Source: Chlorobiota bacterium
GTDB taxonomy: Bacteria; Bacteroidota; Ignavibacteria; Kapaibacteriales; NICIL-2
Direction: 5' to 3'
DNA: 64,000 nt
Assembly (NCBI GenBank): GCA_044228285.1
Contig: JBGAVD010000002.1
Location: forward strand, 545,653 to 609,652
Shown: positions 26,223-37,925 of the stretch, piece after piece
Layout: the number at the start of each line of letters is the position of its first letter
How positions within the stretch are numbered: the first letter of the stretch is position 1
The notes under the pieces: generated by a model
Database searches by the model: none
What the model was told of the DNA's origin: nothing
Seen by the model: only the letters and a program-made list of their open reading frames with translations
Position numbers and translations under genes: made by a program

Positions 26223-26906
26223 TCACAGTTTGATGCGTACACCAGCTACCACCGTGAAGGCACTGATCTTCATCACGGCTTCCTTGCTTCCAGGAGGATC
26301 ATCTGGATTGTCAACGTTGGTTAAGCCAATATTGTATCTCAATCCACCAATAACATCCATGGTAGGATTGATAGGGTAGATGGCTTCGGTCCCAAGAATG
26401 AAGCTGACTTCCAGCGAGTTAAATGTACTGTTAGGCAAAGATGTGTCAGAGCTGCTGGAAATGGAGCCGTACGTGTACGTACTGGAACTGTTGTTCCCAA
26501 CAAGTACTCCGATACCTGGACCACCGTACACACAGATTCCTACATTCGAGACAGCAGTAGCTCTGTAGCGAAACATAGGATTGATTTGAAGGTACGATAG
26601 GCGATAGGTTGAGCTACTACTGTATGATTGTCCGAAATTGGATCCCGACTCAGAGAAACCTCCACCTTTACTCATATACCAGAGCTCTCCAAGTATGGAC
26701 ATGTTTCCTTCAGCGTTGATGGCTGACTCTGCTCCAATGCCGAATGATAAGAATGTCGCAGTCGTTGTTGTTTCGCCTTGCAGGAGTGAGTCATGCGAGA
26801 AGTTTGAGAAATTCAGACAAAGCTGTGCTCTGCCAAACATGTCGCCTGCAACAACTGAGGACGAAACGACAACCAAGAGGATCAGTGTACTAACAGTATT
26901 CTTCAT
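26223..26906 (-). CDS. Outer-membrane beta-barrel protein (hypothetical)
   Basis: Signal peptide MKNTVSTLILLVVVSSSVVAG. Ser/Gly/Tyr-rich with alternating beta-strand pattern. C-terminal ...AGVRIKL. Confidence 0.55.
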   Translation of the reverse strand: MKNTVSTLILLVVVSSSVVAGDMFGRAQLCLNFSNFSHDSLLQGETTTTATFLSFGIGAESAINAEGNMSILGELWYMSKGGGFSESGSNFGQSYSSSSTYRLSYLQINPMFRYRATAVSNVGICVYGGPGIGVLVGNNSSSTYTYGSISSSSDTSLPNSTFNSLEVSFILGTEAIYPINPTMDVIGGLRYNIGLTNVDNPDDPPGSKEAVMKISAFTVVAGVRIKL

Positions 26907-27523: not shown

Positions 27524-29404
27524 TTAGAATATCGTATATAGTATCAATAGTGCGAGAACTGTTCCCACAACGACGGCAGCAAAGCCGAAGAGGCGCAAGC
27601 CAATTTCTACTGGCAGTGGAGTAGGTTTGGTGACCACGTAGTCCTTTGTGTTGCCGGTTTCATTGTAGCGTTTCCATTGGTCCATTCGTTCATGTCGCAT
27701 TTCCTCCTCACTGATTTGACCATTGAAGATGACGAAATCCATAGGGAATTTCTCTACTCGTAGGTGCGTGTTAAAGAAGTGAATCGTAAAGATGAATCCT
27801 ACAGCGAGGAGTGCTTCGTCGGAGTGGATGATGGTTGCTACATTAAACACCCAACCAGGTAAAAAACCTCCAAAGAACTCAGGCATCCATAGTATGAGAC
27901 CACTTGAGCCGATAACGCCGACGCCCCAGAATACAGCCAGAAAGTCAAACTTCTCCCAATATGTCCAACGATCAAACGTTGGCTTTGGCCCTTTGAAAAA
28001 GAACCACTTAAACATTGCGATCATGTCGCGAAGATCGCGACGGTTTGGAAACAGGCTATCAGGTCCAAACAAACGCTGCAACATGGTCTCTTTCGGCGCA
28101 CGCTTCGTGATGAGGAAGCGTATACTCATGCCGAGTGTGACAAAGAAGTATCCGAAGGTGACAACGGCTGCCAGACGGTGGATGAGACCAGCCGAGGCAA
28201 CACCGCCGAGAAGGTCCATGAGTGCATGTCCCCATTGGGTCTCGTTGAACTTCAAGGGTAGACCAGTTATAGCAAGGGTTAAGAAACTTGTGATGACAAA
28301 AATGTGGAGGATGATGTGTATTGGACGGAAACGACGATACACTTTCTGCGCTGCATGCTGTTTTGTTACTTCGGTGGCTGCGCCACCGAAGAGGGCTGCA
28401 TTGGCAAGATGCTTCTTCTCAACAAAGCCTCGATACATCCATAGTAATGAGTGCAACCAGAAGAATAGAAACGTACCAGCCAGTAATCCATTCATGCTAA
28501 TGGTCACCCAAAAGAGCAGAGGATTGGCTTGTCGGTTCCCAGGTTCAGCATGCGGAAGGTATTTGGCAAAGCCGTTACCTGCATCCTTATGACACTGCCG
28601 ACAGGTCGTTGTGAGGTTGTTAGGATGTATCGATGAATGAGGATCATCCTTTGGGAGAATCTTGTGCGACTCATGGCAATCACTACAACCAGCAACTTGT
28701 TCAGGATGACCTAGGCGAACGTTCTTGCCGTGGTAGCTTTCGAAATACGAAATTGGTGCGATTGTGGTGACTTTGTTACGCGCCATTTTATCGGCATCAG
28801 CATGACACTTTAAACACGCTTGAGTATGAAACATGCGGCCTTGCTGGACGTTGTCTATGCGATCGATGGCGTGCAAACCATGGCAATCCACACAGCCCGG
28901 AGCATCCTTACTGCCTTCTTTTATAGCTTTGAAGTGACTCGATTCGAAGAAGGACGATTGCTTGTCATGACATTGAGTGCAGAGTTGGGCAGTGGCAATT
29001 TTGTCGTTCTTGATGGAGCGTAAGCCGTGTATCTCCGAGTGACACTTAGCGCAGGTAATTGGCAGACGTTTTGAGTTGTGTACGCTTTTCTCGTGATCGT
29101 TGACCACAGAAGAGTGGCAGCTCACACACTGTGTTGGCTTGAATGAAGCAACGCACTTCTTGTCTGTACCCTCCGCTGCAAATGGAGCCTTAGTGTGATC
29201 TTCGATATGGCATGCTGCGCATTGCAGTGACTTGTGTACTGAGCTGTTATATAAAGCAGAGTACTTATGATCACCATGGCATTTCTGACAATCTGAGTTT
29301 GACTGCGTATGTGTTTGAGTGTTCTGCGCACGCGTATTGGTACCGCTCATTACAAGTATCACCAGGCAGGCGGCTAGTTTCGAGAGTTTGGATAGTACTG
29401 ACAT
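27524..29404 (-). CDS. Nine-heme c-type cytochrome fused to a membrane dihaem cytochrome b (FdnI/HydC-like) domain. CbcL-like quinol oxidoreductase.
   Basis: Signal peptide MSVLSKLSKLAACLVILVMSG (internal ATG at 29404; the ORF is open to 29491). Nine CxxCH motifs (CQKCH, CAACH, CVSCH, CAKCH, CTQCH, CVDCH, CLKCH, CSDCH, CRQCH). The C-terminal ~330 aa have at least four hydrophobic helices with conserved His, resembling the b-type cytochrome of formate dehydrogenase or hydrogenase. Confidence 0.8.
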   Translation of the reverse strand: MSVLSKLSKLAACLVILVMSGTNTRAQNTQTHTQSNSDCQKCHGDHKYSALYNSSVHKSLQCAACHIEDHTKAPFAAEGTDKKCVASFKPTQCVSCHSSVVNDHEKSVHNSKRLPITCAKCHSEIHGLRSIKNDKIATAQLCTQCHDKQSSFFESSHFKAIKEGSKDAPGCVDCHGLHAIDRIDNVQQGRMFHTQACLKCHADADKMARNKVTTIAPISYFESYHGKNVRLGHPEQVAGCSDCHESHKILPKDDPHSSIHPNNLTTTCRQCHKDAGNGFAKYLPHAEPGNRQANPLLFWVTISMNGLLAGTFLFFWLHSLLWMYRGFVEKKHLANAALFGGAATEVTKQHAAQKVYRRFRPIHIILHIFVITSFLTLAITGLPLKFNETQWGHALMDLLGGVASAGLIHRLAAVVTFGYFFVTLGMSIRFLITKRAPKETMLQRLFGPDSLFPNRRDLRDMIAMFKWFFFKGPKPTFDRWTYWEKFDFLAVFWGVGVIGSSGLILWMPEFFGGFLPGWVFNVATIIHSDEALLAVGFIFTIHFFNTHLRVEKFPMDFVIFNGQISEEEMRHERMDQWKRYNETGNTKDYVVTKPTPLPVEIGLRLFGFAAVVVGTVLALLILYTIF

Positions 29405-29429
29405 TGTGCAAATCCAGAATGAATAATGT

Positions 29430-30626
29430 TTAGCCGCAGAGTCCGCCCGCGCGTTTCTTGGAAGCAATCTTAATTTTCTGTACGTATGCATCTTTCGGGA
29501 ACTGCTTTAAGATCTCCGATGGAGGTGCTGCAATGTTCACTTTGTGTCCAGCTACGGTTTTGCCGGCAAAGAGTGAATTCCAGTTCGTTAGGCCTTTCTC
29601 AAGGATGTAGAGGTTTGCAACACCTTGAACCTTTAGATACTCCCAAGCTTTAACTGCTACAGTTTCATTGTCTGAAACAAGGACAACTACGCCTTGCGCT
29701 GGAAGTTGTGCGTACGGTGATACTTTCTTCGCATCGAGAAGATCCTCGAGAGTTACGTTGAGTGCACCGTTCAGATGAAACTTCTCAAACTCATCCGCAC
29801 CACGCAGGTCTAGACACACAAGCTTGATACTTGCTTCATTGTAGGTCTTCACGTATTCGAGCGGATGTATAAACACAGCCTTTGAGCGGAGTAGTGGCGA
29901 GTAGGTGTTCTGCATGATTTCCCACTTGCGCACTGGGTCGGGTTGGCCTATGAGCCAGACGCATGCAGCTGCTAGAACGAGTGCGCCGGAACCCAGCTTA
30001 TAGGATCGTTTCGAGATTGTCCACGACATCGGTGTGTCAGTGCCACGATTTCGGAAATACTCTTCTGTTTTCTCCGCAGCGTAGAACATGACGAGTGCCA
30101 TGATCGTGACGCCGAACACGGTAGCACCAACTGACCATCCAAGCCATTCATTGAGGATGTAGCGATCGGTGAACGAGGAGTACCAAAAGTCTTCGAAGCT
30201 TGACAGAGACTCTCCGAAGATTCCTGCACCAATGACTGTTCCGATGAGAAAGGCGAGGCCGTCGATCTTGAAGCTTGCAGTTGCGACGACTGAAGTTCCA
30301 GGACAGTAGCCTCCGATGATGAAGCCAACTCCCATGATCAAGCCACCAATGATTCCTGGCCAGAGAAATGTCTGATTAACCGATAGTTGTGAGAAGTCTA
30401 AGTAGCCCAATCCCGCTGCGCCAAACGTAAGTAAACAAGCCACGATGATGCCCGTGAACATAGTTTTCAGAACCGTCATATCTTTTAGATAGAACTGCGC
30501 TGCGAGACGTCGGGAGTCTCCAAAGCCTGCAATCTCCAGGGCGAAGCCGAAGGCTGAGCCTATTAAAAAGAAGACAAAGTATCCGCCTGCTTTACCCAGA
30601 ATGCTAATGATGTCGATAGGTAACAT
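29430..30626 (-). CDS. YeeE/YedE (TsuA-type sulfur/thiosulfate transporter) half fused to a C-terminal rhodanese-like domain
   Basis: GYCPGT motif in a TM helix, a YeeE/YedE signature. After one further TM helix there is a ~100-aa rhodanese-fold-like region (...VVVLVSDNETVAVKAWEYLKVQGVANLYILEKGLTNW). The start is ATG 30626 (GGAG 11 nt upstream) or TTG 30641. Confidence 0.75.
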   Translation of the reverse strand: MLPIDIISILGKAGGYFVFFLIGSAFGFALEIAGFGDSRRLAAQFYLKDMTVLKTMFTGIIVACLLTFGAAGLGYLDFSQLSVNQTFLWPGIIGGLIMGVGFIIGGYCPGTSVVATASFKIDGLAFLIGTVIGAGIFGESLSSFEDFWYSSFTDRYILNEWLGWSVGATVFGVTIMALVMFYAAEKTEEYFRNRGTDTPMSWTISKRSYKLGSGALVLAAACVWLIGQPDPVRKWEIMQNTYSPLLRSKAVFIHPLEYVKTYNEASIKLVCLDLRGADEFEKFHLNGALNVTLEDLLDAKKVSPYAQLPAQGVVVLVSDNETVAVKAWEYLKVQGVANLYILEKGLTNWNSLFAGKTVAGHKVNIAAPPSEILKQFPKDAYVQKIKIASKKRAGGLCG

Positions 30627-30651
30627 TGTCGTCTGCTCCAAGTGTGATTAA

Positions 30652-31173
30652 TTAGTCAGCCCACAAACGGCGAACGAAGTACGCGACGGCATATCCGCCG
30701 GCAAAGACGCTGAACATGAATGCCCAGCTACCCAGAGATAGAACGGCACCTCCGGACAGTGCCTGACCTGATGTGCATCCTCTCGCTAAACGAGCACCAT
30801 AGCCCATAATGACACCTCCAACTAACGCTGCTATGATTCGTTGTGTATTGGTGATGCGTGCACCTTTAAAAATCTCTACCTTAAGTCGGCCATTGAAAAA
30901 GGCCGATGCCATACCTCCAGCAAAGGTTCCAAGCAACAAGAGCACGCTAGCATGATCGAGAGGATTGCGGTCGCCTGCTCCCATTGCCGCGAATGTTCCG
31001 ATGGCATCCACATGTGAAGACCAAACGATTTTCGTGAGCGCAACCTGAATACGACTAATAGCGCCAGAAGCGCCCAGACCACTATGGGTCAGCGCGAAGG
31101 CGCTGAAAAGCACCACTCCAAGAATGCTTCCAGCGAAGTACGGGTTCGTAACGGGTTTAGGAATCTTTTTCAT
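30652..31173 (-). CDS. YeeE/YedE family protein (other half of a split TsuA-like transporter)
   Basis: ATG start. 173 aa with 4–5 hydrophobic helices and a GCTSGQA motif, the second YeeE/YedE Cys motif. 10–25 bp from the neighbouring genes. Confidence 0.75.
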   Translation of the reverse strand: MKKIPKPVTNPYFAGSILGVVLFSAFALTHSGLGASGAISRIQVALTKIVWSSHVDAIGTFAAMGAGDRNPLDHASVLLLLGTFAGGMASAFFNGRLKVEIFKGARITNTQRIIAALVGGVIMGYGARLARGCTSGQALSGGAVLSLGSWAFMFSVFAGGYAVAYFVRRLWAD

Positions 31174-31193: not shown

Positions 31194-32621
31194 TTATTTC
31201 GAAGTCACTTGGACTGGATCACGACTATACCCGAGTTCTTTCCACTTGAAGCGACCATTGTCTGAATGACACTGTTGACAACTGAGTGCCTTGCTCTGCG
31301 TGGTAACCATGTGGGTAATAGGCCAGTACATTTTGGTTGGTGTAAAACCAAAATTGCCACTATATGTTAAGCCAGCGAGTGCTGAACCCTTCTTTAAGGC
31401 AGCAGCCCAGTCGAACTTAGTCCAGTAACCACCTTCTCCACTAGTGAGTGGTGGTACGAGTATGCCATTCACAAGATCAAATGGTTGTTCAGCGAAGTGA
31501 ACCTTGAAAGGCCAGATCTTAGCTTTAGCATTTGAGCGACTACCAATGGGTTTATTGATGTGGTGTACGGAATCGGCATCGAGCTTGTCGCCAAGTATGT
31601 AACGCTCCATCTTACCTGTGTACCAAGCATAAGTTGGTACTACGTCTTCCTCGTACTGAAACTCACCTTTAATCTTCAAGTACTCGTGCGGATTGTCTTT
31701 TCGCGTGGAGTCTCCCGCCTTCGACCAATCCCAAGCCATCTTGGTAGGGAGCTTGCGCGCGAACTCGGGGATATGACAGGTTTGACAAGCGATGCGCAAA
31801 GAATGCTGATTGAGGCGATGGTCTGCGTGTGGTTTCTCTGTGTGACAGTTCTCGCAACCAAATCGCGCAACCTTTGTTTCGTCGGAGTAGGTAGCATTCA
31901 CTTTTCCCGGGACAACGTGGCGCTCGGTCTTGTGACAATCCACACATTGGAAGTTGAGCTTACCCATATGATAATCCAGCTCCTGATTCGCATTCAACAA
32001 GGATTCATCCAAATCTCCGTGCTTAACACCCATACCACCTCCGCCACTGAAGTGACAGGTTCCACAGTTTTCGCGAGTTGGCCGATGAACGCTACCAGCC
32101 ACAAGTTTTAAATCCACATTCTTGTTTGGCATTCCACTACGACCTTTTGAATAGCTACCGGATCCGTCATGGCAAATCAAACAGTCGACGTTCTCCTTCT
32201 TGCTGAAATCAAAGTCTGCGTTGTCGAATCCATAGCCAGCATGGCAGGCGGAGCATGAGATCCAGTTACCAATCACACTTATGCAGAAGTTATTGACTTG
32301 GTTTTTCTTGCCTAATGGAATGGTCTTGCCATTGCGTACGGCATCACCACTAATCCAGGTCCAGTGTGCAGTTTTCATGACTTCGTCTGCTGCCTTCGGG
32401 TGACACTTCAGACAGCTCATGGTCACCTTCTGCGGAGAGTCAATGGAGTCACGATAGTAGGCACTATGATCTAAATGCGGAATCTCGCGTCCTTGCAGTG
32501 GATTCAATGCCACTGGCTTGATTGGTGTCTCAGTTCTCGCACCTCTATTGCAAGCGCTGCTCGTGAACAAGAGAACTACGGTACAACCAAACAATAGTAC
32601 GCGTGCAAGAACCGACATCAT
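31194..32621 (-). CDS. Octaheme c-type cytochrome (octaheme tetrathionate reductase/OTR-family-like)
   Basis: Eight CxxCH motifs (CLKCH, CSACH, CLICH, CGTCH, CVDCH, CENCH, CQTCH, CQQCH) in ~475 aa. Signal or lipoprotein-like peptide MMSVLARVLLFGCTVVLLFTSSAC. The start is 32621/32618, with the ORF open to 32675. Confidence 0.8.
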   Translation of the reverse strand: MMSVLARVLLFGCTVVLLFTSSACNRGARTETPIKPVALNPLQGREIPHLDHSAYYRDSIDSPQKVTMSCLKCHPKAADEVMKTAHWTWISGDAVRNGKTIPLGKKNQVNNFCISVIGNWISCSACHAGYGFDNADFDFSKKENVDCLICHDGSGSYSKGRSGMPNKNVDLKLVAGSVHRPTRENCGTCHFSGGGGMGVKHGDLDESLLNANQELDYHMGKLNFQCVDCHKTERHVVPGKVNATYSDETKVARFGCENCHTEKPHADHRLNQHSLRIACQTCHIPEFARKLPTKMAWDWSKAGDSTRKDNPHEYLKIKGEFQYEEDVVPTYAWYTGKMERYILGDKLDADSVHHINKPIGSRSNAKAKIWPFKVHFAEQPFDLVNGILVPPLTSGEGGYWTKFDWAAALKKGSALAGLTYSGNFGFTPTKMYWPITHMVTTQSKALSCQQCHSDNGRFKWKELGYSRDPVQVTSK

Positions 32622-33381
32622 TCGCTCTCGGTATGTTGGTCGGAACTCTTGTTGATTTATCATGCGTGTTCTCATAAGTCACCTTTGTTGGAAGGGGAGT
32701 GTCTTTGATTCATGCTGGTCTTCGAAAGAGGCATGTTATCGCCATGGAGATGGGTCATGACATTCTCACGAATGCCAGTTTTCAGATTCATAGCAGGGCG
32801 TTGCCCGCTTGTCTGCGATCCCGATGGGTAAATGCTCGTTAGACTTCGCAGTGTTGTTGAAAATACCTGTGCACTAAAAGCGGGGTGCGAATTCACTCGG
32901 CAAGGATCTGTTGCGGCGAATAATAGCTCGTGTTGATATCTTCTGAGCCTTCTTTTGCTGTTTAGGGAGAGTATGGGAAACGGAACCTTCATTTCATCTT
33001 TCCGGGCTCGAGTTTGTAAGCAGAACTATCGACCAGAAAACTAATTAAGATAATTTTGTCCTAAAATATGCAATAGGTCAGAAAAGAACGAAGAAAAGTT
33101 TTCAATAGCAAGTCTGCAGCATCGAACACCCGGGTAGCCGAGACGCCATTCTGCCGAACTTAGATTGTGAAGTCGAGCATACATTGCTGCTCTGTGTAAC
33201 GAAACATGGGGTCGCTGGCTTCTAAGTGCTTATAAAGATAGACACATAGTTGCCTTGAAAAGCTTGGTGCTGAACGTGAACAGGTCTCTTACTCATTTTA
33301 CGAGTGTGTAACTGAGATTGAATGGACTATGCGAATTCAACCTCTAGTTTTCATTATCAGATTGCACATCACAAAGTTCTT

Positions 33382-33432
33382 GCGTAACCATTCAGTTACG
33401 TGTTATATTGCTACGCGTAACCGATCGGTTAC
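33382..33432. promoter_or_regulatory. Two adjacent inverted repeats sharing GTAAC half-sites (CGTAAC-N6-GTTACG and GTAACC-GATC-GGTTAC). Candidate ArsR-family operator.
   Basis: Read directly. A perfect 16-bp palindrome GTAACCGATCGGTTAC sits at 33417–33432, 33 bp before the arsR-like ATG. A second IR at 33382–33399 has the same half-sites. They lie in the divergent region between the regulator and the cytochrome operon. Confidence 0.5.
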
Positions 33433-33464
33433 TGGAAAGTTCGAGATTAGAAGCTAGGGCATCA

Positions 33465-33830
33465 ATGCGACGTGACGTCTTTCAGGCAATAGCAGATCCA
33501 AACCGTAGGGCTATTCTTGCGGAGTTGGTGAAGCGGCCACTCAATGTTCAGGCAGTAGCGAAGCAGTTCTCGATAAGTCGTCCAGCTGTATCAAAACACA
33601 TGAAGATATTGGCTGAATGTGGCCTGGTGGTCTATACTCAGAAGGGACGTGAGCGATACTGCGAGGTACAGATACAGAAACTCAATGAGGTGTCTGAATG
33701 GGTGCAACAATACCGCGAATGGTGGTCTCAAAGTATGGACTCTTTGGATGCCTACTTACAGGAAGTGCAGAAGAAAGATGCAGTGGGCCCGAGCTCGAAC
33801 AGAGAAGCTGATGCCGTGAATGAGAGCTAG
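33465..33830 (+). CDS. ArsR/SmtB-family transcriptional regulator
   Basis: HTH region VFQAIADPNRRAILAELVKRPLNVQAVAKQFSISRPAVSKHMKILAECGLV is typical of ArsR-family wHTH. ATG at 33465. A TTG at 33408 would overlap the palindrome. Confidence 0.8.
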   Translation: MRRDVFQAIADPNRRAILAELVKRPLNVQAVAKQFSISRPAVSKHMKILAECGLVVYTQKGRERYCEVQIQKLNEVSEWVQQYREWWSQSMDSLDAYLQEVQKKDAVGPSSNREADAVNES

Positions 33831-33994
33831 GAAACAACATGCCTTTGGCAAACGCAGATATGCCATCATACTCGTAGCACGGCGAGAATGAGCATCTGCC
33901 AGTCCCTCGCAAAGAGCAGCTTTCGTGTTTGCTGAGCCTCGAGTAACTAATGAGAATCGCTAATCAAGACCTCTTAACATAAACACAATAAAGT

Positions 33995-34534
33995 ATGAGC
34001 AATAGCCAAACCACCGTAGAAATTCTGGCAGGTGATCTGATCATGAAGCGCCGTATTGCAGCGCGCCGCGAACTAGTCTATGCTGCGTGGACCCAAGCGC
34101 AACAGCTGGCGCGCTGGTTTGGTCCACACCACGTGGTTATATCTGAATGTTCTTTTGATGGATATGTAGGCGGACAAATACGTATTGTGATGCTGGCGTC
34201 TGACGGCAGTCTTTACCCAATGAATGGAACGATCGTTGAGCTCAGCGAGAATGAACGACTGGTGATGAACTTTGATCTTAGAGATCATCCACCAGAGTGG
34301 CACAGCATGATGGCTGAACAGTATCGCGCAAACGGTGGAAACGGAGATATGACGCCGATCGTTCGCATCGAAGTGGATTTTATCGAAAGCTCCAAGCAAG
34401 GGGAGCACACGGATCTCATCATCCGACAGTGCTTCAACTCTGATCCTGAGAGTCAAACCTATCTCAAAATGGGCTCTGTTGATGGGTGGTCGCAAAGCTT
34501 TGAAAAACTCCAAGAGCTCTGTCAACAAAGCTAA
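33995..34534 (+). CDS. SRPBCC-superfamily protein (AHSA1/activator-of-Hsp90-ATPase-like domain)
   Basis: RELVYAAWTQAQQLARWFGP is typical of AHSA1-like SRPBCC proteins, which are commonly encoded next to ArsR regulators. Confidence 0.75.
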   Translation: MSNSQTTVEILAGDLIMKRRIAARRELVYAAWTQAQQLARWFGPHHVVISECSFDGYVGGQIRIVMLASDGSLYPMNGTIVELSENERLVMNFDLRDHPPEWHSMMAEQYRANGGNGDMTPIVRIEVDFIESSKQGEHTDLIIRQCFNSDPESQTYLKMGSVDGWSQSFEKLQELCQQS

Positions 34535-34687
34535 TGGACCATAGCAAACAGAAATGATGACTGTTCATATCGAGTTCGTTTCTTCTTGCGAGTACTTGTG
34601 CTCACTAATTCTGAAGCGACAAACCCAACAGTCAACGATACAATGATATTCTCAAGCAATAATGATTCACTATTAAAAATACACTTC

Positions 34688-35050
34688 ATGCTTCTCAATG
34701 ATCCTGAACTCGACAGACGTTCACTTATTAATCGCCGACAGCTCTCTGCTCCTAGAGAGTTAGTGTTTGACGCATTTACGAAATTGGAACACGTTGCTCA
34801 TTGGTATGGTCCTCGTGGCTTCACAACTACCACCGAGCATATGGATGTGCGCGTTGGAGGTGAATGGCTCTTTACCATGCACGGACCTGATGGAGTCGAC
34901 TACCCAAATCGCATTCGATACTCTAAAGTCGTACGCCCAGAGCTTCTTGAATACATCCACGACGACGCGCAAGAGCCTCCGAAACAGACTTTTCATGTTA
35001 TTGTGACCTTCGAAGTTGAAGACAGATCAAGTGGCAACCTATGCTGTTGA
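34688..35050 (+). CDS. SRPBCC-superfamily protein (AHSA1-like), possibly frameshifted at the 3' end
   Basis: RELVFDAFTKLEHVAHWYGPRGF. The ORF ends ...FEVEDRSSGNLCC. The +1 frame continues ...ATYAVEGGKQTMDKLVEYLTRIQGQKV to ~35117. The N-terminal extent is uncertain (the ORF is open to 34586). Confidence 0.65.
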   Translation: MLLNDPELDRRSLINRRQLSAPRELVFDAFTKLEHVAHWYGPRGFTTTTEHMDVRVGGEWLFTMHGPDGVDYPNRIRYSKVVRPELLEYIHDDAQEPPKQTFHVIVTFEVEDRSSGNLCC

Positions 35051-35820: not shown

Positions 35821-36083
35821 GGATTAAATGAGACTGAATGGGCAAGACAAGTGCTCCAATCTAGCGCACACGATTTGTCTGCACAAGGAACACTTCAGCT
35901 TCGATACTGTTGCGCAATAGTGTTATTGATCCTCTTGTACAATGTAGCACAGTAGGCCGTGATCTTTGTGCGCATGGATCAGCTTGCGCTCTTTGTCGAA
36001 GCTCTCGCGGTATTGCAGTTGTATCTCTTCGTGTGTAAACCCGAAGAGTGCATATTTGCAGAGAACTCTCAAAGGGAATTACT

Positions 36084-37925
36084 ATGAAGCAACAAGCTGG
36101 TTTCTTGTGGGTGATGATTGTCTTATGCATTTCGGGACTCGAAGCGCAGCCACGCTTTCAACTTGGAATAAACTTCGATGCCCAGAATACTGGTGCTTTC
36201 GTTAATGTGGCATTGCATTCACATCGTTACTCGAAGGCTGCAGGATATGATAGTCTTGGTTATCCAACCAGTGACTTTGAATATTTACTCATGGATGCAC
36301 GACCTGTCGCAGAATGGAGCTCGAGTATTGATGATCCTGAGCAGTACCGTGTGAACTTCTCTGGTCGATATGCTTGTCGCTTCCGCGGACAAGCTAACGT
36401 TAGTGCTCCCTGGGTAGCGTCAACTATTGAGAATCTTAGTTATGACGCAACCACGAACACGACCATCTTTGAGCTTGTCATTGGTGGATATCCAAATGCT
36501 AGTCACGGCTTAGTCAATTTGGTGTTTACAAACACGCGACGTACCGCTGCAGATACTCTTCGCAGTGGCATCACGGATCTTGTGGTGAATAGACCGGGTT
36601 ATGCCCTGAACACGAACAAAGTGTTTACCGACGAGTTCTTGGCTTTGTGCACGAGTGCGGACTTTGCCTGTTATCGTTACTATGGTGTTCAGAATGTTTG
36701 GGATGGAGAGCCTGTGTATCCAAAGAAAACACGTTGGGCTGATCGCAAGCCTGTGAATTATTCTGCGCAGATGCCAGTGCCAGAGTTGGGACAATCCGAG
36801 GCGTGGAGCTGGGATCACATCATTCAACTGGCTAATATTCTCAAGAAGGATATGTGGATCTGTGTGCTAATGTCGGCCGATTCAGACTACGTCATCCAAC
36901 TAGCCACCATGCTCAAGAATCAACTTAACCCGAGCATCAACATCTATGTTGAAAATAGCAATGAAGTATGGAGTCCGACATTTATGGCCTATGGCGCGTA
37001 CAATGCAGCCGACGCAAAGGCACGAGGAATTGGTTTTGATCAGAACTACGCTCGCCGCACCATTGAGTTAAGCCAACTCTTCGCTTCGGTTTTTGGTGCT
37101 GACCAGATCAATAAGCGTATACGGGTAGTCTTGGGAACTCAACAAGGCTACAGTGGCCGTAGCGATGCGCATATACAGTACATCCGCGCACAGTATGGAG
37201 AGCCCAAGAATTATATCTATGCACTCAGCCCTAGTCTTTACTTCGGATCGAAAAATGCAAATGCGACGCAAGCTGTCGAGATCGCCAAGGGAATGAAAGA
37301 TGATATTGATGATATGATCAATAATAGCTCAAGTCCATTTTACCGAGACAACCACTTCAGAAGAGCGCGCAACCTTGAACTGCTTGGCGGATGTGCATCG
37401 TATGAAGGAGGACCAGGTGTTCCAAGTTCACTCTCGGCTAATCTTGGAAATCAGATACTTGCACATCGAACGAGCGAAGTAGCAGATGCGATACGCTACA
37501 ACTACTTGGAAGGGTGGCGCAATCTTGGCGGAGGCTTAGCGTGTTTCTTTACTCTCGTATCATCCTACAATCGCTACGGATGCTGGGGAGCTACAGATGA
37601 TTACAAGTATCCTGATCGCAATTCTAAAATGCAAGCTCTTCGTGATCTCATTGCAACGACTACGGTGGACGTTGTTGATACAAACTCTAGCCCATCGCAG
37701 TTTGGTCTCAAGATCTTTGTCAACGCTGTCCAGACCTCGTTGGAGTTTGGTCTGGAGAATCCGATGTCGCCATGCTCCATAGAAATCTATTCCGTACTAG
37801 GGGAGTGCGTGCACCGCGGGAACGATTGCAGAATTGATATCTCAATGTTTCCCAATGGTTGGTATGCCGTCAAACTCCGTGATTCAACTGAGACTCAGCT
37901 CGGCACTTTTCGCATTTGCCGCTAA
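36084..37925 (+). CDS. Secreted protein with T9SS C-terminal sorting domain. The N-domain may be a (beta/alpha)8 glycoside-hydrolase fold (weak).
   Basis: AGGG-type RBS. Signal peptide MKQQAGFLWVMIVLCISGLEAQ. An internal ENSNEVWSP motif is reminiscent of the NEP catalytic-acid box of clan GH-A. C-terminal ~75 aa are CTD-like. Confidence 0.6.
   Translation: MKQQAGFLWVMIVLCISGLEAQPRFQLGINFDAQNTGAFVNVALHSHRYSKAAGYDSLGYPTSDFEYLLMDARPVAEWSSSIDDPEQYRVNFSGRYACRFRGQANVSAPWVASTIENLSYDATTNTTIFELVIGGYPNASHGLVNLVFTNTRRTAADTLRSGITDLVVNRPGYALNTNKVFTDEFLALCTSADFACYRYYGVQNVWDGEPVYPKKTRWADRKPVNYSAQMPVPELGQSEAWSWDHIIQLANILKKDMWICVLMSADSDYVIQLATMLKNQLNPSINIYVENSNEVWSPTFMAYGAYNAADAKARGIGFDQNYARRTIELSQLFASVFGADQINKRIRVVLGTQQGYSGRSDAHIQYIRAQYGEPKNYIYALSPSLYFGSKNANATQAVEIAKGMKDDIDDMINNSSSPFYRDNHFRRARNLELLGGCASYEGGPGVPSSLSANLGNQILAHRTSEVADAIRYNYLEGWRNLGGGLACFFTLVSSYNRYGCWGATDDYKYPDRNSKMQALRDLIATTTVDVVDTNSSPSQFGLKIFVNAVQTSLEFGLENPMSPCSIEIYSVLGECVHRGNDCRIDISMFPNGWYAVKLRDSTETQLGTFRICR

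Follow-up and report, generated by a model that had tools for sequence, protein, structure and literature searches.

Organization of the locus and the split channel

A 64,000-nucleotide stretch of contig JBGAVD010000002.1 from a Chlorobiota bacterium (GCA_044228285.1, positions 545,653 to 609,652 of the forward strand; referred to hereafter as the window) was characterized, with attention to a YeeE/YedE-type membrane protein that is fused to a rhodanese-like domain and ends in a cysteine-bearing arm. The window carries four closely packed genes on the minus strand, which form one unit. These are otr, encoding an octahaem cytochrome c of the Otr family (open reading frame of 493 amino acids (aa), 31194..32675; TIGR04315, eight CXXCH motifs); a PmpA-like channel half of 173 aa with the motif GCTSG (30652..31173; PF04143); the fusion, an open reading frame of 403 aa that combines the motif GYCPGT with a rhodanese domain (29430..30641; PF04143 and PF00581); and a multihaem membrane protein (open reading frame of 655 aa, 27524..29491, likely 27524..29404; nine CXXCH motifs and hydrophobic segments). 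With the likely start codons (ATG at 30626 for the fusion and M30 for the last gene), the genes are separated by gaps of 10–25 nucleotides (nt).

The listed open reading frame of the fusion starts with a TTG at 30641. Because its homologs are 398 aa long and a GGAG sequence lies about 9 nt ahead of the ATG at 30626, the protein probably begins at this ATG (398 aa). Residue numbers are those of the 403-aa open reading frame unless 398-aa numbering, from the ATG start, is stated. The longest open reading frame of the 655-aa cytochrome reaches 62 nt into the end of the fusion gene (window 29405–29491). As homolog alignments mostly start at about residues 28–30, and a signal peptide is found at M30, its start probably lies at 29404 (M30). 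A promoter and terminator scan of the operon gave counts equal to the shuffled expectation.

The first-pass annotation of this DNA had recognized a YeeE/TsuA-type transporter divided between two genes, and this held. Both open reading frames matched the Pfam family Sulf_transp, PF04143 (77.2 bits for the 173-aa protein and 60.1 bits for the 403-aa protein, cutoff 27), with GCTSG at residues 132–136 of the former and GYCPGT at residues 111–116 of the latter. Scores against the TsuA/YeeE equivalog models of NCBIfam (NF041049 / NF052577) were 23.0 and 29.1 bits, as compared with cutoffs of 645 and 400. The channel is a PmpAB-type split YeeE/YedE and not a TsuA equivalog.

Two-gene PmpA/PmpB systems are known. 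Each of their two proteins aligns to a different half of full-length YeeE, the one with Cys91 or the one with Cys293, and the proposed assembly is a heterodimer (PMC11582611). As in PmpA/PmpB of Serratia sp. ATCC 39006 (PMC11582611), the halves in the window are encoded by adjacent genes, comprise four transmembrane (TM) helices with one conserved cysteine each, and follow the order PmpA-like then PmpB-like. The PmpA-like gene adjoined the fusion in all 80 loci compared; these are the best 80 of at least 584 relatives found in species-representative genomes, and all locus counts refer to them. Unlike the described halves, which are about 130 aa long and lack the central helix H7, the PmpB-like half of the window retains an H7-like helix. 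The fusion also differs by adding a sixth TM helix, a rhodanese domain predicted to be periplasmic and a cysteine arm, and the pair is tied to otr.

In the PmpA-like half, the motif RGCTSG (nt 30766–30780, minus strand) holds the sole invariant cysteine, Cys133, on the second re-entrant loop, whose predicted entry is periplasmic; R41, R128 and R131 were also conserved among 48 orthologs. The PmpB-like four-TM half occupies residues 6–150 of the fusion, from the ATG (30192..30626, minus strand; PF04143), and its N-terminus is predicted to be outside. Its motif GGYCPGTS (nt 30294–30311, minus strand) carries Cys113, which was kept in 76 of 76 fusion orthologs and lies on a re-entrant loop with a predicted cytoplasmic entry. 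[quoted passage not shown] Assignment of Cys113 and Cys133 to YeeE Cys91 and Cys293 follows the published scheme (PMC11582611) and the predicted topology, without a significant direct alignment.

The window pair shares with TsuA/YeeE and TsuB/YeeD (E. coli; Spirochaeta thermophila, 6LEO and 8J4C) the Pfam family and a protein partner with a reactive cysteine, and the hourglass form of that channel, with relay cysteines on re-entrant loops, was counted as a further likeness. TsuA, however, is a single chain with nine TM helices, three cysteines and a small cytoplasmic TusA-like partner, whereas the channel of the window is split and has no equivalent of Cys22, and its cysteine-bearing partner domain is part of the chain, with a predicted periplasmic location.

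The rhodanese domain, the cysteine arm and predicted topology

The rhodanese-like region reported in the first pass for the second half of the transporter was upheld by Pfam, AlphaFold2, Foldseek and hhalign. Residues 274–356 (29574..29822, minus strand), predicted to be periplasmic, matched PF00581 with 38.9 bits (cutoff 22.2). In an AlphaFold2 model of the fusion built from 62 homologs, with a mean predicted local distance difference test score (pLDDT) of 78, the rhodanese part reached pLDDT values of 85–93, and a Foldseek search of the PDB returned single-domain rhodaneses with a probability of 1.00. Profile alignment to GlpE of E. coli (hhalign probability 87%, E 3.9e-6) placed Ser323 opposite the catalytic Cys65, with Asp324 next to it. 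The loop at the CxxxxxR cradle site is S323-D324-N325-E326 (nt 29664–29675, minus strand), within the sequence VVLVSDNE at residues 319–326. It had been proposed that the active-site cysteine is lost and that aspartate stands in its place; the loss was borne out, and the aligned residue proved to be serine. Among 76 orthologs the catalytic-cysteine column held S, A, G, D or T and never Cys, the loop reading [SAG][ND][DN][ED], and no cysteine was conserved anywhere in the rhodanese domain. The nearest sequences in the PDB (1YT8 domain 1, CEP41 and Alr3790) likewise had no cysteine aligned in the active-site loop. The domain has a rhodanese fold and lacks the active-site cysteine of a catalytic sulfurtransferase. 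In a database survey of such fusions, 119 of the top 120 homologs combined PF04143 with PF00581. Very large proteins with 7–10 tandem rhodanese-like domains related to that of the window were also found (P0245, 2327 aa; P0246, 1654 aa; P0260; P0274).

The description of the module as non-catalytic fits the cysteine-free loop but misses an invariant penultimate cysteine that lies on a disordered tail and is replaced by selenocysteine (Sec) in some relatives. This arm (residues 389–403; 29433..29477, minus strand) starts with a basic KIKIASKKR sequence and ends with GGLCG-COOH. The C-terminus of the window fusion reads ...KIKIASKKRAGGLCG, and the codon of the penultimate Cys402 lies at 29436–29438 (minus strand). 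The penultimate cysteine and the glycine two residues ahead of it were invariant in alignments of 23, 62 and 76 orthologs; the cysteine was present in 74 of the 76 aligned orthologs, and the other two rows had gaps there. Across phyla the consensus of the arm was K[VI]K[LI]..K[KR]..GG[LG]C[GS], often ending in GGGCG or SGGCG and twice in GGCGG. The arm cysteine occurred in Chlorobiota, Bacteroidota, Verrucomicrobiota, Bdellovibrionota, Myxococcota, Chloroflexota, Planctomycetota and Proteobacteria. The fusion has only two invariant cysteines, Cys113 and Cys402, and the partner half has one, Cys133. The final eight residues had pLDDT values below 50 in the AlphaFold2 model, consistent with a tail that is disordered or flexible.

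A flexible C-terminal Gly-Gly-Cys arm with an invariant cysteine is also a feature of SoxY, whose swinging arm reads VTIGGCGG (PMC11237559), and in a published model the persulfide of periplasmic SoxYZ passes its sulfur to the YeeE-like channel SoxT (PMC11582611). The likeness to the window protein is one of function only. No Pfam match to the SoxY profile was obtained at E values up to 10 for the tail region or for the stand-alone homolog described below, and clustering of neighbouring genes gave no conserved SoxZ-like neighbour. Homology of the tail to SoxY was rejected for want of a Pfam match, and since no SoxY profile matched, the resemblance is taken as analogy or convergence. Both SoxYZ and the window module (by prediction) are periplasmic and bear such an arm; that of SoxY carries sulfur covalently, as we propose by analogy for the arm of the window. 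The window protein differs from SoxY in having no SoxY fold, a rhodanese scaffold, an arm fused to the channel, and no SoxZ, SoxB or SoxAX. The cysteine is penultimate in the window arm, whereas it is third from the end in the GGCGG of SoxY.

Mammalian thioredoxin reductase has a flexible C-terminal Gly-Cys-Sec-Gly arm, which moves to and fro between the substrate and a redox centre buried in the protein. The window arm may be compared with it in that a penultimate Sec or Cys stands on a flexible tail and is preceded by glycine, as in the GGG-U-G-COOH ends of three relatives (L103, L104 and L109). Fold, compartment and chemistry are unrelated, and the window arm is without the adjacent cysteine needed for a selenenylsulfide. 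A further comparison is offered by Sud/Psr of Wolinella succinogenes (1QXN, Foldseek match rank 31), which has a periplasmic rhodanese fold; its delivery of cysteine-bound sulfur to a membrane-linked respiratory reductase may be counted as a likeness to the system proposed here. Sud, unlike the window protein, has the canonical loop cysteine and is a soluble dimer, whereas the window system has no loop cysteine, a cysteine on the C-terminal tail and a cytochrome instead of a molybdoenzyme.

One extra TM helix had been noted after the four-helix YeeE core; the AlphaFold2 model and hydropathy analysis revealed two instead. The fifth TM helix, which is H7-like, spans residues 171–198 (30048..30131, minus strand; AlphaFold2 helix 166–193 in 398-aa numbering, hydropathy peak 171–189) and is predicted to run from outside to inside. 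The sixth spans residues 212–231 (29949..30008, minus strand; AlphaFold2 helix 207–226 in 398-aa numbering), is predicted to run from inside to outside, and is followed by a conserved GQPDP junction (nt 29934–29948, minus strand). Over 76 orthologs the predicted cytoplasmic loops of the fusion (1–2, 3–4 and 5–6) contained 5.9 Lys and Arg residues in total, as compared with 1.3 in the predicted periplasmic loops; the K/R-rich loop 5–6, predicted to be cytoplasmic, had a mean of 2.26. In the 173-aa half (48 orthologs) the corresponding values were 3.7 for the N-terminus, 3.9 for loop 2–3 and 2.1 for the C-terminus, and loop 1–2 was net acidic. This charge bias predicts an N-in/C-in orientation for the 173-aa half and an N-out orientation for the 403-aa half. 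The two halves are predicted to form an antiparallel pair, in which the fifth helix of the fusion would take the role of H7 and the sixth would return the chain to the outside.

Stand-alone homologs of about 200 aa were numerous in an exhaustive search with residues 235–403. They consist of MKK or MRK, a hydrophobic helix, GQP..KWE, a rhodanese domain with an SNDE-type loop, and the same C-terminus as the fusion. Judged by its sequence, their N-terminus is a classic N-in/C-out signal anchor, and the sixth TM helix of the fusion corresponds to this anchor. Three-gene versions were also found. One locus (L083) has three overlapping genes, whose products are a PmpA-like protein (179 aa), a PmpB-like protein that includes H7 (196 aa) and an anchored rhodanese (202 aa); in another (L082), and in many metagenome contigs, the PmpB-like gene stops just past H7, where its product ends in a basic tail. 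These versions are divided within the K/R-rich loop that follows the H7-like helix, with overlapping stop and start codons. Because of the three-gene splits and the signal-anchored stand-alone forms, the fusion point is placed in a cytoplasmic loop and the module past the sixth TM helix in the periplasm. The rhodanese module is predicted to be periplasmic, and the proposal of the first-pass annotation that it stands in place of a TusA partner is contradicted by the charge bias, the signal-anchored forms and the breaks in the three-gene versions: in the predicted location it could not replace TusA/YeeD, which acts on the cytoplasmic face. With a rhodanese fold, a predicted periplasmic location and no CPxP motif, it also lacks the features of a partner of the TusA/YeeD type.

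Selenocysteine variants, cytochromes and conserved neighbourhood

In two of the 80 genome loci an in-frame TGA stood at the codon of an invariant cysteine, once in the channel (L050, 8325–8327) and once in the arm (L054, after ...KQVTGGG). A metagenome scan with the channel pattern GVGF..GG[FY]-TGA-PGT yielded 27 contigs (L086–L112), all reading through into conserved sequence. In total, TGA at the channel cysteine (GG[FY]-U-PGTS) was found in 28 contigs, L050 and the 27 from metagenomes, and TGA at the arm cysteine (GGG-U-G/S-stop) in four (L054, L103, L104 and L109), with read-through in every case, L050 included. L103, L104 and L109 have TGA at both positions and end in GGG-TGA-GG[CT]-stop, making them double-Sec candidates. 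The window gene encodes cysteine at the channel and arm positions.

A hairpin resembling a selenocysteine insertion sequence (SECIS), with a GC-rich stem and a loop of GGUC, AGUU or GUU, lay about 20–25 nt after the UGA. It was present in 14 of 21 distinct Sec variants as compared with 7 of 79 Cys variants, the difference in folding energy being significant (p = 5e-4), and compensatory changes occurred in three of the four predicted stem pairs. In the four arm-UGA cases a GC stem with covariation and a GUU loop lay 21–25 nt downstream, and a terminator distinct from this stem came next. Folded one sequence at a time, the two UGA contexts found first were not significant alone (z -0.16 and -1.33); the case for SECIS rests on the comparison of 21 Sec with 79 Cys variants. 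In-frame UGA, read-through and a downstream hairpin mark the relatives, and not the window gene, as selenoproteins.

YeeE/YedE proteins with GUxSG have been named as predicted selenoproteins in a review (PMC13188914). That motif belongs to the other, PmpA-like half, which keeps cysteine in the 23 Sec-fusion contigs where the motif was found; neither the PmpB-side Sec position of the channel nor the C-terminal -GGGUG motif was found in this selenoproteome review (PMC13188914). Among the Sec-type fusion contigs, those of sufficient length carry otr as well (L103, L109 and L111). The exchange of Cys for Sec marks the positions of channel Cys113 and the arm cysteine as chemically active, indicating that they are reactive nucleophiles, and argues against a merely structural tail.

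Otr was reportedly crystallised in 2004. The 493-aa neighbour has eight CXXCH motifs and scored 535.5 bits against NCBIfam TIGR04315 (cutoff 375), and its alignment to S. oneidensis Otr (1SP3; E 4e-125) showed that the Lys ligand of GKKN (K123, aligned with Lys56 of 1SP3) and the Cys of NNFC are retained. On these matches it is a true member of the Otr family. It likely starts at M19 or M20, followed by a signal peptide, perhaps of the lipoprotein type, has one N-terminal hydrophobic segment, and is predicted to be periplasmic. The family has exactly one conserved non-haem cysteine (NNFC; Cys131 in the window), eight residues past the Lys haem ligand. It was present in 98–100% of both the 48 Otr proteins linked to the channel pair and 120 of the Shewanella type, and could be a catalytic thiol relevant to sulfur chemistry. 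The two groups also have the Lys ligand in common. Linked and unlinked Otr proteins differed at only three positions, none obviously catalytic. The physiological role of Shewanella Otr is described as unresolved (PMC12949373), and in sediment microcosms otr transcripts rose 36-fold with tetrathionate (PMC8528874).

The 655-aa neighbour has nine CXXCH motifs and about five hydrophobic segments within residues 325–655. It gave several matches to multihaem models of Pfam and NCBIfam, and residues 384–453 weakly resembled FdnI/cytochrome b556 (E 4e-4, below cutoff); the membrane part alone gave no Pfam match. The protein is presumed to be the electron link between the quinone pool and Otr. CbcL of Geobacter sulfurreducens combines a nine-haem c domain with a dihaem b domain. 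With its nine CXXCH motifs and polytopic membrane domain, the 655-aa protein is likened to CbcL by architecture alone; CbcL is named in PMC11492766.

The best 80 loci came from Chlorobiota/Ignavibacteria, Bacteroidota, Opitutaceae, Oligoflexia/Bdellovibrio, Myxococcota, Chloroflexota, Planctomycetota, and Gamma- and Betaproteobacteria. An Otr homolog stood beside the pair in 72 of them, and seven of the other eight had less than 2.1 kb of upstream sequence. The gene order of the window, including a protein of the 655-aa type downstream of the pair, recurred in L001–L031, of which L001, from a metagenome-assembled genome of Chlorobiota, is 84% identical to the window locus; together with a weak match to a secretion sorting domain described below, this fits a source in the Bacteroidota–Chlorobiota group. 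Other phyla have, between otr and the pair, a gene for a multihaem protein of some 900 aa that ends in a PF01292 cytochrome b561 domain (for example L064, 4643–7372). A multihaem membrane protein always accompanied the pair, as one of two unrelated types. The membrane domain of the window protein (27524–28531) is unlike the PF01292 module in sequence, with no similarity in BLASTP, and a common origin of the two membrane modules was rejected on this ground. The lack of similarity indicates non-orthologous replacement, in which the function of a multihaem cytochrome c with a membrane anchor has been conserved.

Neighbourhood clustering gave ArsR-family regulators, in some lineages, as the sole extra conserved partners. 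In L021 (5601–5981) an ArsR repressor of the SqrR/BigR type, with both persulfide-sensing cysteines, lies directly upstream of otr on the same strand; its best match in the PDB was SqrR (6O8L, E 6e-21), and a similar gene was found in L063 (343–672). Chloroflexota loci such as L032, L033, L036, L041 and L045 have a different, one-cysteine ArsR-family gene directly upstream of otr. In the Shewanella psychrotolerans locus (L081, 5865–9407) otr comes after genes for a small cytochrome c and a 570-aa DUF3373 protein.

Homologs of the fusion carry the Joint Genome Institute (JGI) label 'rhodanese-related sulfurtransferase/...YedE/YeeE'. The literature searched gave no account of the fusion, of its predicted location in the periplasm, of a Cys or Sec arm at its end, or of its linkage to otr. 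The PmpAB-type split and the presence of the PF04143 and PF00581 domain pair in databases are already known, and for the rest no published description was found. The nearest published ideas are the hand-over from SoxYZ to SoxT (PMC11582611), the soxY and soxZ copies that adjoin otr in lucinid symbionts (PMC11237559), and a periplasmic rhodanese with a SoxYZ-like carrier in ped clusters.

A proposed sulfur-carrier arm, its alternatives and the flanking genes

Starting from the architecture, the invariance of the three cysteines, the exchange of Cys for Sec and the synteny, we propose that the split channel has a periplasmic cysteine carrier arm, from which covalently attached sulfur is presented to both Otr and the mouth of the channel, a reading to which we give about even chances. 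On the arm cysteine a sulfur compound would be bound as a mixed disulfide (persulfide or S-thiosulfonate), which might arise, for instance, when the arm attacks tetrathionate or polysulfide. By analogy, the arm cysteine would work like the GGCGG arm of SoxY and be placed like the penultimate Sec of thioredoxin reductase. The arm would present its adduct to the co-encoded periplasmic Otr, which would exchange electrons with the quinone pool via the co-encoded multihaem membrane protein. Any sulfur species that the arm releases or retains would then enter the channel mouth and move along Cys133 and Cys113 to the cytoplasm. The predicted order of the cysteines is the arm (outside), Cys133 (outer loop) and Cys113 (inner loop), with Sec occurring at the first and third.

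Most hosts (Bacteroidota, Ignavibacteria, Anaerolineae) are menaquinone users and anaerobes or facultative anaerobes. Because of this, and because the potential of the tetrathionate/thiosulfate couple is quoted as +198 mV in PMC8528874, we favour a reductive direction, in which electrons would pass from quinol through Otr to the arm-bound sulfur. A Cys S-thiosulfonate is chemically half a tetrathionate, which could explain both the poor turnover of free tetrathionate by Otr in vitro (PMC12949373) and the response of otr to tetrathionate in sediments (PMC8528874). A wider possibility, which we regard as tentative and rather doubtful, is that a large branch of Otr proteins acts in nature not on a free anion but on a sulfur adduct (persulfide or S-thiosulfonate) borne by the swinging Cys or Sec arm of a membrane protein; direct Cys-to-Cys or Sec-to-Cys transfer from the arm would then load the channel, which would serve as a transmembrane sulfur relay in a quinone-coupled assembly.

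If this wider possibility is true, the operon would encode a respiratory and transport assembly of a previously undescribed kind. The conserved operon offers a testable hypothesis for the disputed role of Otr, namely that the substrate is protein-bound, and the presence of carrier arm and channel on one polypeptide suits structural and biochemical tests of a SoxYZ-like hand-over. The module occurs in common sediment, freshwater and wastewater lineages, and through it sulfur intermediates may be cycled by a route so far overlooked.

Several points weigh against the carrier-arm proposal. That the arm contacts Otr is our inference, as are substrate and direction, and the computed evidence constrains neither of the last two. 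In vitro, Otr prefers nitrite and hydroxylamine, and deletion of otr in Shewanella had no tetrathionate phenotype (PMC12949373). The S. psychrotolerans locus, from one Shewanella genome, has no YeeE, rhodanese or multihaem membrane genes, which indicates that Otr does not need the module in general. One locus (L038), the only true lack among the 80, has the pair and no otr within 8 kb upstream. No cytoplasmic acceptor or partner of the TusA, DsrE or thioredoxin type was conserved in the neighbourhood clustering. The membrane topology is a prediction, and the TM part of the AlphaFold2 model had only moderate pLDDT values of about 60–80. Assignment of the two proteins to the N- and C-terminal halves by sequence was tried and set aside, as Pfam and NCBIfam gave opposite answers. 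A search of the PDB with the family profile found S. thermophila YeeE at E = 6, and hhalign gave a probability of 5% against E. coli TsuA. This assignment is uninformative because all four repeat elements of YeeE share a GG..GGC motif, and the topology therefore rests on the charge bias and on the split and stand-alone forms.

The main rival to the proposal is a transmembrane thiol/disulfide relay of the CcdA/DsbD kind, in which a cytoplasmic reductant would act via Cys113 and Cys133 on the arm cysteine and keep the conserved non-haem cysteine of Otr, or a substrate, reduced. There is one invariant cysteine in each inverted half, on a re-entrant loop near the membrane centre, and the YeeE crystal contains a disulfide between two loop cysteines (PMC7449682). 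Sec occurs at two positions of the three in the relay, a pattern typical for redox-active sites, and Otr has its conserved free cysteine eight residues from the Lys ligand. A family of selenoproteins with a rhodanese/DsbD fusion, TsoB, is listed in PMC13188914. Movement of thiosulfate has, however, been shown for members of the YeeE family, for which no electron-relay role is reported (PMC7449682, PMC11073785); no thioredoxin-like cytoplasmic donor is conserved in the operon, and the nine-haem membrane protein already supplies electrons. We consider such a relay unlikely, and the remaining explanations less likely still.

In the second rival, the pair is a plain assimilatory importer of thiosulfate or another sulfur anion, the rhodanese serving as a capture or docking lid and the cytochromes forming a separate respiratory unit. 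Rhodanese domains without the cysteine often act as binding modules, and both halves are bona fide PF04143 proteins that retain the residues needed in YeeE. The rhodanese loop, however, is acidic and ill-suited to anion binding. Synteny with otr and a multihaem gene holds over at least eight phyla, despite rearrangement of the gene order and non-orthologous replacement of the membrane module, and a plain importer leaves the invariant terminal cysteine and its replacement by Sec unexplained. This makes it a distinctly improbable account of the locus.

A cytoplasmic, non-catalytic rhodanese that binds sulfur or has a regulatory role in place of TusA/YeeD would fit the loop without cysteine and the lack of a tusA/yeeD-like gene in the operon. 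It is nevertheless very improbable, as the charge bias, the signal-anchored stand-alone forms and the three-gene splits all indicate an outside location, the co-conserved partners are periplasmic c-type cytochromes, and the module bears an invariant Cys or Sec at its C-terminus. Equally improbable is a selenium system, with selenite or a selenium adduct on the arm, reduction by Otr and import by a YedE-like channel: the best NCBIfam match of the 173-aa half was a selenium-metabolism YedE/FdhT model (E 1.2e-13, far below cutoff), a YedE-like protein has been implicated in selenium transport (PMC11582611) and some members of the family are themselves selenoproteins, but Sec content is uninformative on selenium transport, the SqrR/BigR-type regulator of L021 and the link of otr to soxY favour sulfur, and the family spans many lineages.

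The genes that flank the unit are unrelated to it and encode an outer-membrane beta-barrel protein, a tetratricopeptide-repeat (TPR) adenylate cyclase and a divergent ArsR/AHSA1 pair. The beta-barrel protein (227 aa, PF13568; window 26223–26906, minus strand) is encoded on the strand of the operon, some 600 nt downstream of it. A PF13568 homolog lies on the same side of the operon, about 2.4 kb away, in the closest relative (L001), and conservation elsewhere was not found; the protein might be a porin for the substrate. At window 33408–35050, on the plus strand and divergent from the operon, a gene for an ArsR-family regulator (140 aa, two cysteines), which is unlike the BigR/SqrR type, is followed by two AHSA1/SRPBCC genes. 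Further along the plus strand (window 36048–37925), a 625-aa protein gave a weak match to the C-terminal sorting domain of the type IX secretion system (T9SS; Por_Secre_tail, 20.9 bits, cutoff 27).

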